Shown here: positions 20,724-27,268 of the stretch, piece after piece
Layout of the letters: each line of letters starts with the position of its first letter
Position numbering within the stretch: position 1 is the first letter of the stretch
Assembly: GCA_963786955.1 (NCBI GenBank)
Contig: CAWBAT010000004.1
Coordinates: 416,001 to 480,000 of the forward strand
DNA from: an uncultured Acidimicrobiia bacterium
GTDB taxonomy: Bacteria; Acidobacteriota; Terriglobia; Versatilivoradales; Versatilivoraceae
DNA: 64,000 bases
Reading direction: 5' to 3'
Made by a program: the position numbers and the translations under genes
The notes under the pieces: generated by a model
The model's database searches: none
What the model was told of the DNA's origin: nothing
What the model saw: the letters and a program-made list of their open reading frames with translations, nothing else

Positions 20724-23177
20724 TCACATCAAGTCGATGGGATCAATATCGATTTGCAGCCGGCTAAAATCGATTCCTTGCTTTTCACCTTGTGCCAGGC
20801 ATCGTTGCAGCAATTCTTTGAGCGTCTGGCGGGTTTTCGCTTTGATGAGGATCTGGTAGCGATGCTCGTTCTTCAGCCTTGCCAACGGAGAGAGAGCCGG
20901 CCCGAAAATACGAGTTTCGGTGTTTACGAGGCCGGATAAGACATCTGCGAAGCTATTAATCAGCCTGACCGCTCGATCCAGGTTGCGGTCGCGGGACAAA
21001 ATATTCGCCATGGCCGTAAAGGGTGGATAGTGCATCAACTTTCGGAACTTGAGTTCTTTTTCGAAAAACCCTTCATAGTCATGTTTCCGGACAAATTGCA
21101 GGCAGTAATGTTCCGGGAAGTAGGTTTGAATCAAGACCTGTCCCATGAGCTCACCACGGCCAGCCCGTCCTGACATCTGGGTAAATAACTGAAAGGTCCG
21201 CTCGGCGCTCCGAAAATCGGGTAACGAGAGCACACTGTCAGCCGAAAGGATTCCCACCAGGGTGACCTGATGAAAATCGTGTCCTTTCGAAATCATCTGC
21301 GTTCCGGTCAGAATATCAATCTCTCCAGTCTGCACCTGCCGCAGGATCTTCAGATGGGCATTCTTCTTCCGCGCGGTATCTCGATCCAAGCGCGCAATTC
21401 GAGCCTGTGGGAAAATCTTATCCAAGACTGCTTCAATCTTCTCTGTCCCCTCCCCCAGAAAATGAAGATGCTCACTGCCACAAGCCGGACAATTTCCCGG
21501 AACCGCTTGTTCGTAGGAACAATAGTGACACACCAGGCCATTCTTAGATTTATGATAAGTGAGGGTGATGCTGCAATTCCGGCAGCGAATGCTCTGTCCA
21601 CAATGCCGGCAGAGTAAGCTCGCTGAGTACCCTCTCCGGTTGAGGAGCACGAGAGTCTGCTCCTTTCGGGCAAGACGCACTTGGATCTGCTCTTTGAGAA
21701 CACTGGAGAGCGTTGGCTTCTTCCCTCCGATCTTGAACTCTTCTCTCATATCCACTAGGGTGACTTCTGGAAGGGGGCGGTCTTGAACCCGTGACGCTAG
21801 CCGGAGGTATTGATATTTCCCGTTCTTCGCATTGTAAAAAGTCTCAACGGAGGGAGTCGCGGACCCTAAGATGACCACCGCATTTTCCTGCTTTCCTCGC
21901 ACCAACGCTGTATCCCGCCCGTTATAACGTGGGCTTTCGTGTTGCTTAAAGGAAGGATCATGCTCTTCGTCCACGACAATGAGGCCAATGTTGTGGAGCG
22001 GAGCAAAAACGGCCGAGCGGGTTCCGATCACAACCTTGGCTTCTCCTCGACGAATTCTCCACCACTCATCAAAGCGCTCGCCATCAGACAATCCGCTGTG
22101 AAGAATTGCTGAGGCATTTTTCAAGCGCCCGCGAAACTCCTGGGCTACCCGGGGAGTAAGTCCGATTTCCGGCATTAATATCAGGCAAGTTTTCCCCATT
22201 GCCAGGGACTGCTCAATGAGCGTCAAGTAAATTTCGGTTTTTCCGCTTCCGGTCACGCCGTGGAGAAGCCAGGAGGAAAAAGAAGTGGCTTGCAGAGCCT
22301 TGCTTAGTTCCGTGATGGCAGCTTTTTGCTCGATGGTGTGTTCAGGCACAACGGAGAAAGAGGGCTGAGGCATCTCTCGATAGGGGTCACGCTGGAGGCG
22401 TTCTGAGGTGATTCGAATCAGACCCTTTTTCTCCAAGGTGTTGACGGTTGATCGAGAAACCTTCTGCTGAGCGAGTAACTCGGTAAGAGCGATCGGCTCT
22501 TTTCTTTTCTGAAGACACTCCAGAATTTCAAGTTGCCTGGCGGTGAGCTTCAAAGTCCCCGTTTTGGATAAATCCGAAAAAGCCAGAGATACTTGAAGCT
22601 GTGTTTTTTCTGAACAGCTGCTTGGGCTAAAAGAGTGGTCGATCCTCACCCATTGGTTTGAGACAAGTTTCGGCAACATTCGATCGGCCGAGGCAATGCC
22701 GGTTTCATTTTTGAGCTCGAGTGAAGTCAGCGATTTCTTTTGTGCAAGGATCCTGAGAACGCGTGTTTCTTGTTCATTGAGGCCGGGCAATGCCTCAGCC
22801 TTGGCCACCTCTTCTCCTTGACTGGTAATGACTGCGTGTTTGTGGCTTTTGAGGCTGCCCCCCGGCGGTAGACAAGCTTTAAGCACTTCCCCTAAGGAGG
22901 CAAAATAGTAATCCGCAATCCATTGGCTGAGTTTGAACAGGCTGGCTGGAATCACCGGAACCGGGTCGACGACCTTGAGAATGTCCTTGATGGCGACACT
23001 GCTCTGGATTTCTACGGGAAGCTGCGCGTGGGTTTTCACCACAAATCCCATCATCTTCCGGTTTTGAAAAGGGACGAGGACTCTTTGGGCGGGCTGGGCC
23101 GATTCAAAGATTTCTTGCTCACATCGGTAGTAAAAAGTCCGATGAAGTGGTAACGGCAGGGCGACTTCGAGGAACAT
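20724..23177 (-). CDS. priA: Primosomal protein N' (PriA)
   Basis: GVTGSGKT, DEEH, SATPS, a Cys-rich zinc region and QMSGRAGR. Confidence 0.96.
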   Translation of the reverse strand: MFLEVALPLPLHRTFYYRCEQEIFESAQPAQRVLVPFQNRKMMGFVVKTHAQLPVEIQSSVAIKDILKVVDPVPVIPASLFKLSQWIADYYFASLGEVLKACLPPGGSLKSHKHAVITSQGEEVAKAEALPGLNEQETRVLRILAQKKSLTSLELKNETGIASADRMLPKLVSNQWVRIDHSFSPSSCSEKTQLQVSLAFSDLSKTGTLKLTARQLEILECLQKRKEPIALTELLAQQKVSRSTVNTLEKKGLIRITSERLQRDPYREMPQPSFSVVPEHTIEQKAAITELSKALQATSFSSWLLHGVTGSGKTEIYLTLIEQSLAMGKTCLILMPEIGLTPRVAQEFRGRLKNASAILHSGLSDGERFDEWWRIRRGEAKVVIGTRSAVFAPLHNIGLIVVDEEHDPSFKQHESPRYNGRDTALVRGKQENAVVILGSATPSVETFYNAKNGKYQYLRLASRVQDRPLPEVTLVDMREEFKIGGKKPTLSSVLKEQIQVRLARKEQTLVLLNRRGYSASLLCRHCGQSIRCRNCSITLTYHKSKNGLVCHYCSYEQAVPGNCPACGSEHLHFLGEGTEKIEAVLDKIFPQARIARLDRDTARKKNAHLKILRQVQTGEIDILTGTQMISKGHDFHQVTLVGILSADSVLSLPDFRSAERTFQLFTQMSGRAGRGELMGQVLIQTYFPEHYCLQFVRKHDYEGFFEKELKFRKLMHYPPFTAMANILSRDRNLDRAVRLINSFADVLSGLVNTETRIFGPALSPLARLKNEHRYQILIKAKTRQTLKELLQRCLAQGEKQGIDFSRLQIDIDPIDLM

Positions 23178-23511
23178 GCCTTATGGACTTTTGAGTTTAG
23201 GAATGGCTGAGTAAGGGATCACAGCTTTGATATTCGCTTGGCAAACGGCTGCATGAACAATTCTACTGCATCAGAATTGCAGACCTGATTTCCCTACTGC
23301 GCAGTTATTGCCAAACTGTGTTCGTTGAGTTTCACGCGGTTGTGAATCTAATTTCATGCGCTTCATGATAACTTTCATGAGTTTTCATTATGGCCCTGTC
23401 AATAGGCTGGCTCAAGGGATTTCTGCTTGACCGTTGGTCGATGTGTCATTCAGCCTAAGGACTACTATTCGTAATTACGGTGAGCCGTCTTTGGATAGGC
23501 GCCGCGTGAGG

Positions 23512-23570
23512 TTGGAGCTTTGAGAAAGCCCCAAGCCTACAAAATTGTAGGCCGGGTCACCGACCCGGCG
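23512..23570. repeat. Two divergent GTAG-type REP-like hairpins
   Basis: + strand GTAG-GCCGGGTC-ACC-GACCCGGC (23547-23569); - strand GTAG-GC-TTGGGGCTTT-CTC-AAAGCTCCAA (23540-23512). Confidence 0.5.
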
Positions 23571-23849
23571 TAACGGTCACTGTATTTATGAAAAGCATTA
23601 CTTAGTTTCGGGGTGGCGCACCCATTAGAAGGCCTTTGTCAATAGAACAAACTACCCCTTGAGTGCGACGTAGACTTTTTTGCAAAGGCTCCCTTGCCAG
23701 ATTCCTTTCTCGATCTTCAGAGCTAGCGGCTCATCGAGGACCGTACGCTGTCTACCGGCGGCCTTAGCTGGGTCTACGGGCTAAATTCCTTAGCTTTCTC
23801 CAGCCATGATTCGAACTGGAGAAGGCGGAAGGATCCCGGCCGAGTTTTT

Positions 23850-24177
23850 GAACCACGCACCCAGGGTTTTCTTGCTTGAGGATCGGCTCGTATCGAGTCC
23901 GTCCATGCACCCATCAGGATCAAGGCTATCGAGGACCATTGGCCTCATTAGCCCCTGGCGCCGTGCGGCGCCCCAGAAAATCGTTGGTACCAGACCGTGT
24001 CCAATGGGCGTGACCGGGTCACAGAATCGGTGGTTCTCCAAGCCAACCGGCTTGGACCAGCGCCGGGCAGGCTCGCGGTCTGGGCGTGCTCGAAAACATC
24101 AGCCTATATCGGGACGGGGACTGTGTCCAATCAGACAGCTGGATTTACACCAGCGCCACCCAAGGCTCACAGCCCCC
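23850..24177 (-). ncRNA. Putative bridge/seek RNA in the 3' non-coding end of the IS
   Basis: Stem-closed internal loops carry guides that match the target (GGGTGGCGC; TGTCTG) and the donor junction (ACGATTTTC vs ATGATTATC; CTGATGGGTG vs CTAATGGGTG). Exact RNA ends are unknown. Confidence 0.75.
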
Positions 24178-24185
24178 ACCCAGCT

Positions 24186-25205
24186 TTAGCTGCTGAACAA
24201 GCGGGTCGGTTCAAACCGCACCTGATCTCGCAGCACATAATAACAGGCCCGCGCCAGCTTGTGAGCCAGGGCCTTAATTGCCAGCGTCCGATTGACGGCG
24301 GCTGTTTTCCGTTCCACAAATCGTCGGGCTGACCCATACGACCGGGCCGCGTGGGTCGCTGCCTCCACAAAGGCCCAGGCCAGATACCGGTTGCCGTTAT
24401 GGCGGTTGTTCTCCCCTTTCTTCTTCTGGTTGCTCAACCGGGTGCTGGCGACACAGCGGCAGTAAGAGGCGTAATCACCGACTTGAGGGAATCGCCCGAT
24501 GTCGCCGGTCTCCAGCCAGATGGTCAGGGCGAGAATTGGTCCCACCCCATAGACACTTTGCAACAACTCAAAGGAGGCTTCCGGCTTGGCCTGGCTCTTG
24601 AGCTGTTTCTCAATGACCGCAATCTGTTTGTCCAGAGCCTGGATCACCAGCAGCGAACTCTCCACCGCCAGCCTCCGTTCCCGGTCGGGAAACAACTCCC
24701 GAACCTCGGCGACACTCAGCTGCCGAATCGGGGTGTCGGGACTGCGCCGTCCCTGGTGGCGACTCAACAGATTGTTGACGTGCAATAACTGACTGGTGCA
24801 TTGCCTCACCAGAAAACTGCGTTGTCGCAACAGATCTCTCAGTGGCCGCTGCCCAGCCGGGTAAATGTAGCCGGTTGGCAAAAGCTTCAGCCGCAGCATC
24901 TCCCCCAGCCAGCGCGCATCTGACTTGTCGTCACTGTACTTGAGCCCCTGGTACTGCTGCATCGCATTCGGGTTGGCCAGCTTCACCGAGTAGCCCGCTT
25001 CCTTCAGTCCATCCACCAACCAGTACCAGTTGTAGGTCGACTCCACGGCCAGCTCCACAATCTGCTCTCGATACGGCTCTAGTTGCTCTAGCACCACCAT
25101 CATCTCATTGGGCAACCGACACCGATGCACCACGATTCCTCCTTCGTCCAGCAGCACCAGATAACTGTTGTTGGCATGCAGATCGATTCCGCCATATAGT
25201 TTCAT
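24186..25205 (-). CDS. IS110-family transposase/recombinase (DEDD RuvC-like + Tnp domain)
   Basis: GIDLH, VESTYNW, SDDKSDARWL, SVYGVGPI and STRLSN motifs. AAGGAG RBS upstream. Confidence 0.95.
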   Translation of the reverse strand: MKLYGGIDLHANNSYLVLLDEGGIVVHRCRLPNEMMVVLEQLEPYREQIVELAVESTYNWYWLVDGLKEAGYSVKLANPNAMQQYQGLKYSDDKSDARWLGEMLRLKLLPTGYIYPAGQRPLRDLLRQRSFLVRQCTSQLLHVNNLLSRHQGRRSPDTPIRQLSVAEVRELFPDRERRLAVESSLLVIQALDKQIAVIEKQLKSQAKPEASFELLQSVYGVGPILALTIWLETGDIGRFPQVGDYASYCRCVASTRLSNQKKKGENNRHNGNRYLAWAFVEAATHAARSYGSARRFVERKTAAVNRTLAIKALAHKLARACYYVLRDQVRFEPTRLFSS

Positions 25206-25292
25206 CAGAGGTCTCCTTTCGGGATTAAGTTCGGTACTTAACCCTGAGTCTATCCCATTCGGATAGACTCAGGAGGCCTTCTAGATGATTAT

Positions 25293-25399
25293 CAGACATG
25301 TGGTTTTTGCATGTCTGCGCCAGTCGACAATCGAAAGGCCTGGCCTCAGCGCATGCATTCAATTCGAAGACATGCACACAGCGCATATCTTCACCACCC
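25293..25399. repeat. REPIN-like repeat, copy A (its left end GGGTGGCG is displaced to 23611-23618 by the IS)
   Basis: 107-nt near-identical direct repeat of 27162-27268. Two hairpins with GGGTGG...CCACCC termini. Confidence 0.8.
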
Positions 25400-25472
25400 A
25401 GCGAAATCTATGGAGCAACATAATACAGGCCATTCGCTGATGCCGAAGTCTGTTGCCAACTGAACTAGCTGG

Positions 25473-26827
25473 TCAATCCTTGATGGCCTGGTAAGCCAAA
25501 TTCAATGTCTTTGAGGCCAGGTTCAGGCCTCCGGTTGGATGTAGCTGTCCCATAAAGATTGCAATCATGTCTTCTTTGGGGTCGATCACGAACGAAGTAT
25601 AGAAGAATCCCCCCCAATAATAGGCCCCGAGCGAGCCCAATTCGGTCAGATGTCTAGGCTCGCCGTTGACGCCAAAACCAAGCCCATAGCCCATGTCGTC
25701 GAGCTTTCCCTGGACGTGATTTTGCGAGACGAGTTCAACAGACTTCCGGCTCAGCAGGCGTACACCATTCAACTCACCGCCCTTCAGCAGCATCTGGCAA
25801 AACCGGTAATAATCTTCGGCTGTTGAGCACAGCCCCCCCCACCGGAAAAGTAAGTCCGGGGCCCATGGTAGGGATAATCGGAAGAATAGACAAACGCTCC
25901 TTCTTCAACGACCTGTTTCTCGGCAAATGGCTGGAGCCCCTTTGCAGGATAGTAGGTATAGGCGGTTGCCAGCCGTGTTAGTTTCTCTTCCGGCACAAAG
26001 AAACAGGTGTCCTTCATCCCCATTGGTTTAAAGATCCGTTCCCGGAAGAACTGGTCAAGCGTCATCCCTGAAATCACTTCGACCAGGTATCCCAACACAT
26101 CGTCCGAAAGACTGTATTCCCAGGCCTCACCAGGCTGAAAGAGGAGAGGGAGAGAAGCGAGCTTCCTTACCGCATCACCGATGCTCCCTTCCTGCGGGAA
26201 CAGGCCGTGACCAATACTGGCTTCCCGATATCCCTTACCCAGACGATCGTTCCAGTGGTAGGTGAGTCCGGAAGTATGCGTGAGCAGGTGGCGGATCGTG
26301 ATGGGGCGTCTGGCATCTGTCAGGAATCCCGGAGGGGAGGTCTTGTCCTGAGGAAAGGGGGGGTCCAGAACCTTCATATTCTTGAATTCCGGGATAAAGT
26401 TGGAGACGGGATCGTTCAACAGGAAACGTCCTTCCTCGTAGAGCATCATCACGGCCACACTGGTAATAGGCTTGGTCATGGAGCAGATCCGAAAGATCTG
26501 GTCCGTGTGCATGGGCGTCCTGGCCTCCCGGTTCGCCATGCCGAACGCTTTGAAATAGGCAACCTTGCCGTGGCGAGCAACAAGTGTGACGGCGCCAGCG
26601 ATGCGGCTGTCGTCAATGCTTTTCTGGACTACATTGTCGATTCGTTCAAGGCGCTCCGATGAAAGTTCTACATCTTCTGGAGAACCGGCCGATGCGACTG
26701 TTTCAGAATGAAGTGAGGTTGTTTTGGATACAGCCAACTTCTTGGCTGACGATTCGGGGCGGACTACGAGTCCCAGGGAGATTACTAACAGCAGGGAGAA
26801 CGATAATTTCCGAGCGAAATTGTTCAT
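25473..26827 (-). pseudogene. Beta-lactamase-related serine hydrolase, frameshifted at a C8 run (25833-25840)
   Basis: SMTK, HLLTHTSGL and WEYS in the first ORF; YYWGG in the second. One more G would restore SGGGGLCSTAEDYYRF. Confidence 0.8.
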
Positions 26828-27159: not shown

Positions 27160-27268
27160 CGCAGACATGTGCTTCTTACATGCCTGCGTCAGTCGACAAT
27201 CGAAAGGCCTGGCCTCAGCGCGTGAATTCAATTCGAAGACATGCATACAACGCATGTCTTCACCACCC
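27160..27268. repeat. REPIN-like repeat, copy B
   Basis: CGCAGACATG...GTCGACAATCGAAAGGCCTGGCCTCAGCGC...CTTCACCACCC, matching copy A. Confidence 0.8.

Follow-up and report, generated by a model that had tools for sequence, protein, structure and literature searches.

The 3' untranslated region of an ISGsu4-like insertion sequence (IS) of the IS1111 group, carried on the 64,000-nucleotide stretch of DNA analysed here (hereafter the window), is predicted to encode a bridge (seek) RNA with three homologous recombinase-binding modules, the second of which would be a selected paralogue of the first. From sequence comparisons we give this reading a probability of about 0.7, and the architecture in itself, namely a target-binding loop 1, a target-type loop 2 and a donor-binding loop 3, is likely. 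The textbook bridge RNA has two loops. An earlier note on this DNA had described two tandem modules of the minus strand that share one scaffold; the letters are indeed present, with GAGCC and UUGGAC motifs in both, and each module has its own closing stem (Table 1). Its suggestion that the RNA has more than two loops likewise stands, as the region holds three loop modules, of which loop 2 is of the target type, the donor loop being a separate third module at 23990-23901.

Members of the IS1111 group of the IS110 family are marked by a DEDD (RuvC-like) N-terminal domain and a Transposase_20 C-terminal domain, by subterminal inverted repeats of 7-17 bp, by a long non-coding region downstream of the transposase gene, by site-specific insertion without target duplication and with the same core dinucleotide at both junctions, and by a circular intermediate with a junction promoter. 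Both domains were recovered in the 339-residue product of the ORF in the window (DEDD_Tnp_IS110, PF01548, E 1.4e-13; Transposase_20, PF02371, E 1.5e-13), and a long non-coding region of 567 nt extends 3' of the gene from its stop codon (24186) to the right end (23619), the left non-coding end being 87 nt long. A 10-bp subterminal inverted repeat, which also occurs in homologues, lies inside the ends, and TG is found at both junctions. Three of the three copies in the genome sit at the identical position of a hairpin repeat with a TG on either side, and the empty sites have one TG. Joining of the ends is predicted to create a promoter (TTGACA-N17-GATAAT, as read from the sequence), with a matching layout in homologues; its -10-like hexamer (25293-25288) consists of the core G and the first bases of the left end. 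Taken together, the copies, TG junctions, subterminal repeats and -35- and -10-like hexamers of 23619-25292 are hallmarks of the IS1111 group, and by these features the element is a member of that group within the IS110 family. Its nearest named relatives are those of the ISGsu4 family, a name applied by NCBI to plasmid copies with a 49% identical transposase. Across related elements the ends are nearly invariant over 9 nt at the left and over 5 nt plus the core at the right, the 9 terminal nt of the left end being conserved among homologues and the subterminal inverted repeat variable. A search of 23000-26000 against Rfam 15 (E up to 1) matched no curated RNA family, and ISEc11 was sought in the plasmid collection and not found.

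Table 1. Coordinates of the insertion sequence, its target and the predicted parts of its RNA in the window
Feature	Positions	Strand	Parts and remarks
Insertion sequence proper	23619..25292	minus	1674 bp with one TG core copy counted
Left half of target	25293..25319	minus	hairpin repeat with 8-bp arms; ends in left flank 25300-25295 and core TG 25294-25293
Left end	25274..25292	minus	9 terminal nt 25292-25284; 10-bp subterminal inverted repeat 25283-25274
Transposase (bridge recombinase) ORF, 339 aa	24186..25205	minus	from ORF list and Pfam domains
Loop 1, target-binding (predicted)	24116..24176	minus	closing stem 24176-24168 / 24125-24116; GAGCC 24168-24164; 5' guide 24161-24153; inner hairpin 24154-24138; 3' guide 24137-24134; core UG 24133-24132; handshake AU 24131-24130; UUGGAC 24130-24125
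Linker between loops 1 and 2	24084..24115	minus	sequence variable; usually a hairpin in homologues (alignment, fold)
Loop 2, paralogue of target-binding loop (predicted)	23990..24083	minus	closing helix 24083-24076 / 23997-23990; GAGCC 24074-24070; 5' guide 24069-24060; inner hairpin 24059-24031; 3' guide 24030-24024; core UG 24023-24022; inserted hairpin 24022-24010; linker 24009-24005; UUGGAC 24004-23999
Loop 3, branched, donor-binding (predicted)	23901..23990	minus	5' guide (left end) 23985-23976; hairpin C 23972-23957; hairpin D 23955-23922; 3' guide (right end) 23917-23910; core UG 23909-23908; handshake CA 23907-23906
Conserved hairpin and word	23856..23904	minus	hairpin 23904-23880; GAAAAC...GGGYGCG word 23871-23856; behind donor loop in most homologues
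Right end	23619..23642	minus	-35-like TTGACA 23642-23637; inverted repeat 23635-23626; 5 terminal nt; core TG 23620-23619
Right flank of target, 8 nt	23611..23618	minus	identical at all three copies

The block common to the three genomic copies of the IS measures 1709 bp. Elsewhere in the genome the target hairpin runs straight on, uninterrupted, into the 8-nt right flank or into a near variant of it, and the loop of the hairpin differs in sequence among the three occupied copies. Because of this recurrence at empty sites and this variation between copies, the first 27 and last 8 nt of the block are target, and the limits of the IS therefore fall at 25292 and 23619. Hairpins with perfect arms occur at 16 loci, 3 of them occupied by the IS and 13 empty. 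A genome-wide scan with the site specified by loop 1 returned 45 matches at one mismatch and 110 at two, versus 46.5 at up to two mismatches for permuted sites, and sites of this type hold all three IS copies. Many of the 45 one-mismatch matches belong to a second, more abundant family of hairpin repeats (e.g. C4:96421, C4:139221 and C5:343141), which departs from the loop 1 site solely at the second core base; none of these is occupied by the IS, as expected if the core must match.

Several arrangements of these repeats in the genome (G000) may be recorded here. At C6:285557-285580 a target hairpin whose loop is that of the site in the window is joined to the right flank with two bases missing just before the core relative to intact sites, which could reflect either an imprecise excision that left a scar or no more than variation of the repeat. 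At 27162-27268 of the window, the 107 bp that comprise the left flank of the IS and the target hairpin recur in a diverged (91%), unoccupied copy. Elsewhere, hairpin repeats form inverted pairs about 85-145 bp apart that resemble the ends of small MITEs. At C3:299144-303135 lie the two remaining IS copies, inverted relative to and facing one another across a 574-bp spacer that contains an inverted copy of the right-flank word; the pair may be a composite arrangement or two insertions in one MITE. In the window, the right flank is adjoined by a REP-like repeat of about 57 bp with a G+C-rich palindrome (23550-23607), and this part of the query has 37 matches of 84-93% identity elsewhere in the genome.

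Loop 1 carries one guide per strand of the target, both overlapping the core, as is characteristic of the target loop of a bridge RNA. Its 5' guide is a perfect 9-nt (9/9) complement of the core G plus the right flank and would pair with the transposase-sense strand. The letters at 24137-24132 repeat the final 4 nt of the left flank together with the core TG; this same-sense 3' guide would hence pair with the opposite strand, followed by a 2-nt handshake matching the start of the left end. The statement in the earlier note that loop 1 fits the occupied site is thereby borne out. For comparison we used relatives from 80 loci of many phyla, with transposases 48-70% identical, many of whose ends were placed by motif search on single copies; L060 (31-nt flank) was excluded from all analyses of the locus table, and the right-flank tests were run without L065, L086, L087, L109, L054 and L038, whose right ends are dubious. 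In shuffle tests that ignore relatedness, which inflates their significance, the 5' guide of loop 1 showed 5.81 contiguous pairs with its own right flank versus 3.08 shuffled (n=27; 0/5000 shuffles) and the 3' guide 2.83 with its own left flank versus 1.06 (n=29; 0/5000), most relatives belonging to one target class and the flank-tracking signal resting on a minority of lineages. Furthermore, the handshake agrees with the first 2 nt of the left end in 44 of 45 relatives (AT-AT 42, AA-AA 1, AG-AG 1, mismatch 1), and in the window both bases match. By the concordance of its guides with the flanks, loop 1 is the target-binding loop.

The format of loop 1 is repeated in loop 3, whose guides would read the ends of the element itself. 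Positions 23917-23908 are a copy of the right end plus TG and can pair over 10 bp (9 Watson-Crick) with the bottom strand of the right end and core, or of the joined ends. In 57 of 80 rows, a conserved 14-nt word that ends in this copy of the right end plus TG was found some 270 nt downstream of the stop codon, and the 3' guide changes along with the right end in L037, L081, L095 and L107. The 5' guide is complementary to the core G plus the left end (6.04 of 8 positions in relatives versus 5.85 shuffled; 0/5000), with matching changes in L049, L055 and L103; in the window it has 2 mismatches in 8. The loop 3 handshake equals positions 1-2 of the right flank in 40 of 45 relatives (AC 36, CG 2, CC 1, CA 1), with three of the remainder matching at one base and two at none (mean 1.867 versus 1.441 shuffled; 0/5000), and in the window one of two flank bases matches. 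Two hairpins between the guides would make the loop a multi-loop: in these hairpins and the junction helix 96.8% of the alignment cells are paired versus 81.8% shuffled, compensatory changes affect 5 of the 6 pairs of hairpin C, and the short junction helix between the guides is invariant. As its guides follow both ends of the element and its handshake follows the right flank, loop 3 is, on this comparative evidence, the donor-binding loop. The RNA accordingly has two further features of bridge RNAs, a donor loop with guides for the joined ends and handshakes that by covariation match non-cognate DNA, but departs from the IS621 paradigm of exactly two programmable loops in having three modules.

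Two words in the vicinity of loop 3 were considered as alternative right ends and rejected. The look-alike at 23925-23908 was first assumed to be an ancestral right end to which the last 290 bp had been added; this was abandoned because the non-coding regions of homologues, 400-600 nt long, carry the same internal word and a separate true end. The second right-end-like word, 23866-23856 plus CG, does not track the flank in relatives. The conserved hairpin and word behind the donor loop (Table 1) may represent an additional RNA element, a signal for the 3' end or a site for a protein.

For loop 2 we built a covariance model from its homologues alone (R1). Loop 2 of the window scored 65.6 bits with this model, and the second-best match in 2.1 kb was loop 1 (24113-24181; 15.5 bits, E 0.0023), which points to a likeness of the two loops beyond chance. 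In 69 of 78 sources, including 25 of the 34 outside the model-building set, R1 detects loop 2 (E <= 1e-4) at a distance of 90-260 nt downstream of the stop codon, with L034, L044, L045 and L094 left out of the count as duplicate copies in genomes already sampled. The misses are L042, L063, L089 (partial), L090, L105, L111 and L113, together with L067 (E 0.003) and L078, where the match lies 1.7 kb off. Alignments were made with MAFFT, with L104 and L065 excluded from alignment A2 (length; run of N). In the alignment of 45 homologues the closing helix of loop 2 is 93.1% paired versus 75.2% shuffled and 29-39% when slid by 1-3 columns; 9 of its 12 pairs show changes on both sides, and its covariation score was reached by 0 of 500 shuffles. 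Beyond this set, the ISGsu4-family plasmid locus L112 has a loop 2 by R1 (51.3 bits), and inspection of its sequence by eye suggests all three modules, with a donor handshake UC that matches a right flank starting with TC. Three modules are likewise suggested by eye, with R1 silent, in the 31-34% identical plasmid elements L113 (Alteromonas) and L111 (Vibrio), the middle loop again having short target-like guides. A weak full-length R1 match also falls within the transposase gene (24274-24370, minus strand; 12.8 bits, E 0.012 by rough calibration); as it is absent at that place in homologues, we treat it as probably a chance match and not as a loop 2-like module.

These results bear on the suggestion in the earlier note that loop 2 is an extra peculiar to this element, a spare or decaying guide module, a suggestion linked to its right guide having been placed at 24012-24006 and its seeming lack of a UG core. 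With 44 homologues and loop 1 aligned, those positions prove to be only a variable linker behind an inserted hairpin, and the true 3' guide is 24030-24022 including the UG, which 44 of the 45 aligned homologues share, the remaining row being shifted by one alignment column. Absence of loop 2 from homologues, or of covariation in it, had been named there as evidence against the loop; what we found is its wide presence and a strongly covarying helix. That loop 2 is a functionless duplicate of the target loop might be thought from its guides, which match the target more poorly than those of loop 1, and from the position where the handshake dinucleotide would be, at which it has instead a variable-length insertion (a hairpin of 8-35 nt, absent in loop 1); however, its occurrence behind related genes of many phyla, the invariant scaffold residues and UG, and the compensatory changes in its helix render this improbable. 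From this same distribution, invariance and compensation, loop 2 is, as judged by comparison, under purifying selection and not in decay. Since loop 1 is the target loop and the third module the donor loop, loop 2 is best described as a supernumerary target-type loop, and on the alignments it is neither private to this copy nor a donor loop.

The guides of loop 2 had been held to match neither the occupied site nor the donor. Once re-delimited they do match the occupied site around the core: the 5' guide over the core G plus right-flank positions 1-4 (5 nt), the 3' guide over TG and the 2 nt of the left flank that precede it (4 nt). Among relatives, with the above inflation of significance, the 5' guide scored 3.0 against its own right flank versus 2.31 shuffled (n=32; 4/5000), a small effect, with a score of 0 under the fixed register in L048, L069, L075 and L100; the 3' guide scored 1.83 against its own left flank versus 0.80 (n=36; 0/5000). 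Among lineages whose flanks are unusual, L079, L081, L082, L095 and L106 have a 5' guide that follows the right flank, and L057, L075, L077, L103 and L106 a 3' guide that matches the left flank, better than loop 1 does in L077 and L106 (loop 1 was unparsed for L057, L075 and L103). Overall, flank tracking is weaker in the guides of loop 2 than in those of loop 1.

Two other assignments of loop 2 are addressed by these data. The first, that it directs insertion into a second, different target, was raised in the earlier note and draws on the distal guide positions, which are unlike those of loop 1. It finds no support in the genome, where a scan for the 14-nt sequence that loop 2 would specify gave 0 exact matches, 1 with one mismatch and 45 with two, versus a permuted mean of 33.1 at up to two mismatches, these matches forming no repeat family and none having an IS copy, while all three copies lie in sites of the loop 1 type; moreover, the loop 2 guides of relatives follow the same flanks as loop 1, and we regard a second target as highly improbable. 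The second, a canonical two-loop bridge RNA in which loop 2 binds the donor, could appeal to its being second in order and, in the window, itself a multi-loop, and to an 11-bp pairing (9 Watson-Crick) that its linker and scaffold at 24010-24000 can form with the top strand of the right end. Yet the linker is not conserved in homologues and the right end is, for which reason we rejected this pairing, and an 11-bp match with wobbles is by estimate about the chance yield of the scan; the guides of loop 2 vary with the flanks and not with the near-invariant ends, and a separate module downstream follows both ends, so that this assignment too has very little likelihood. Pairing of the 3' guide of loop 2 with the GAUCC word of loop 3 (RNA with RNA) was also rejected, the variants showing no compensatory change; the word belongs instead to the junction helix of loop 3, which, being invariant, is neither supported nor refuted.

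Based on these observations we propose that loop 2 uses the scaffold of loop 1 to present short guides for the core-proximal part of the target only, with an invariant UG and with an insertion in place of the handshake. By analogy with IS621, each module would bind a recombinase dimer, and loop 2 would thus add a further dimer that engages target-type DNA weakly. We would guess that it does so by a short duplex around the core that does not promote exchange, possibly because of the missing handshake. The role that we prefer, though we put it forward as a guess and consider it less likely than not, is that loop 2 might keep hold of the resident copy's flanks while the element is excised or directly transferred, leaving loop 1 free for a new site. 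Its plausibility comes from the need of the ISEc11 donor for flanking target sequence, described in PMC11187229, and from the cooperation of a target-loop-only RNA with the full bridge RNA reported in bioRxiv 10.1101/2025.10.25.684509. An alternative is that loop 2 is a protein-binding or regulatory module, acting in RNA processing or stability, in directionality or as a decoy that titrates the recombinase or the target, with guide-like strands that do not select DNA. Its scaffold is conserved, yet the geometry after the UG is unlike that of loops 1 and 3, the G of the UG being drawn into the inserted hairpin in the fold of the free RNA (whole non-coding region, z = -2.67; local stems were taken from this fold and long-range pairs were not), and a short, target-loop-only form of the RNA sufficed for movement of ISEc11 (PMC11187229). 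This alternative leaves the flank-following guide strands and the invariant UG unexplained, and we think it unlikely, if clearly less so than the three other alternatives above. Extending the proposed reading of loop 2, IS1111-group guide RNAs might in general be tri-specific, with a third conserved target-type loop that reads core-proximal positions without a handshake and holds the resident flanks or gates directionality; we hold this to be somewhat less probable than the role in holding flanks. Were it true, the recombinase would assemble on three loops and not two, and both the unassigned "long seekRNA" and the need for target-flanked IS1111 donors would be explained.

Comparison with described systems, made on the accessible portions of their reports, places the RNA near to but apart from each. 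The IS621 bridge RNA (Durrant 2024, Hiraizumi 2024; PMC11208158) similarly has internal loops with two guides that read opposite strands around a 2-nt core, a 2-nt handshake beside one guide, and one loop for the target and one for the joined ends; loops 1 and 3 reproduce its loop layout, including the handshakes, once the strands are renamed. Unlike in IS621, the RNA is located 3' of the gene and its guides come in the opposite order with respect to the transposase-sense strand; its donor loop branches, and an extra target-type loop intervenes between target and donor loops. The IS1111 seekRNAs of ISEc11, ISPa11 and ISKpn4 (Siddiquee 2024, PMC11187229) share with it the downstream non-coding region, the guide order, the subterminal inverted repeats and the junction promoter, here a predicted one. 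For the IS1111 group that work describes a top-strand match located 5' of its bottom-strand counterpart, and also a longer RNA (145-172 nt) to which its accessible text assigns no role. Loops 1 and 2 together span 187 nt, close to this length, and the published long seekRNAs may have this middle loop as their second stem-loop; unlike here, guides are assigned there to the first loop only (PMC11187229). The bridge RNA predictions for the IS1111 group (Durrant 2024, PMC11208160) put the nucleotides that bind the donor within a multi-loop, which fits loop 3, and the accessible text speaks of target and donor loops only, as against the third loop here. In the direct transfer described for CazIS110-1 (bioRxiv 10.1101/2025.10.25.684509), a target-loop-only RNA acts with a bridge RNA, such that a single reaction on a new target and a flank-end junction involves two target-type loops; this was the source of our guess that loop 2 holds the flanks, with the difference that the second target loop of that IS110-group element is a separate truncated RNA and would here be built into one RNA. 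We found no published description of a third or additional bridge RNA loop, a statement that holds for the accessible parts of the literature, as the supplements of PMC11187229 and PMC11208160 may show one. What those parts describe is either two loops or one assigned loop with a longer RNA that has no assigned role. The ISGsu4 family, represented by L112 with its loop 2, differs from the present element in its target, and no paper on its RNA was found in the literature.

Bridge recombinases are being engineered as programmable tools for genome rearrangement on the two-loop model of IS621. A conserved third loop in the IS1111 group with guides that follow the target points to a mechanistic step outside that model, which could be the recognition of flanks when the element is excised, direct transfer, or a control over directionality. 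For the IS1111 branch, the features above also offer design rules, namely which strands serve as guides, the positions of core and handshake, and a donor loop that is a three-way junction.

Contigs from RNA libraries match the region. Those from two studies, representing relatives 94-98% identical, span 23970-24231 and 23977-24536, extending from the gene's 3' end across both loop 1 and loop 2, and another contig of relatives covers 23683-23936; carry-over of DNA is possible in each case, and as contigs of relatives they carry no information on RNA ends or strand, the parts left uncovered being uninformative. In one such contig, of a close relative, changes at 24171 and 24122 convert a U-A pair of the closing stem of loop 1 to G-C, with pairing kept. 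The gene downstream of the IS encodes the primosomal helicase PriA (minus strand, 20724-23177), and the IS and the target repeat are intergenic, upstream of priA. On the same strand at 25473-26827, a gene for a serine hydrolase of the Beta-lactamase family (PF00144) is broken into two overlapping ORFs (347 aa and 106 aa) close to a G run around 25833-25841, pointing to a frameshift or an assembly error.
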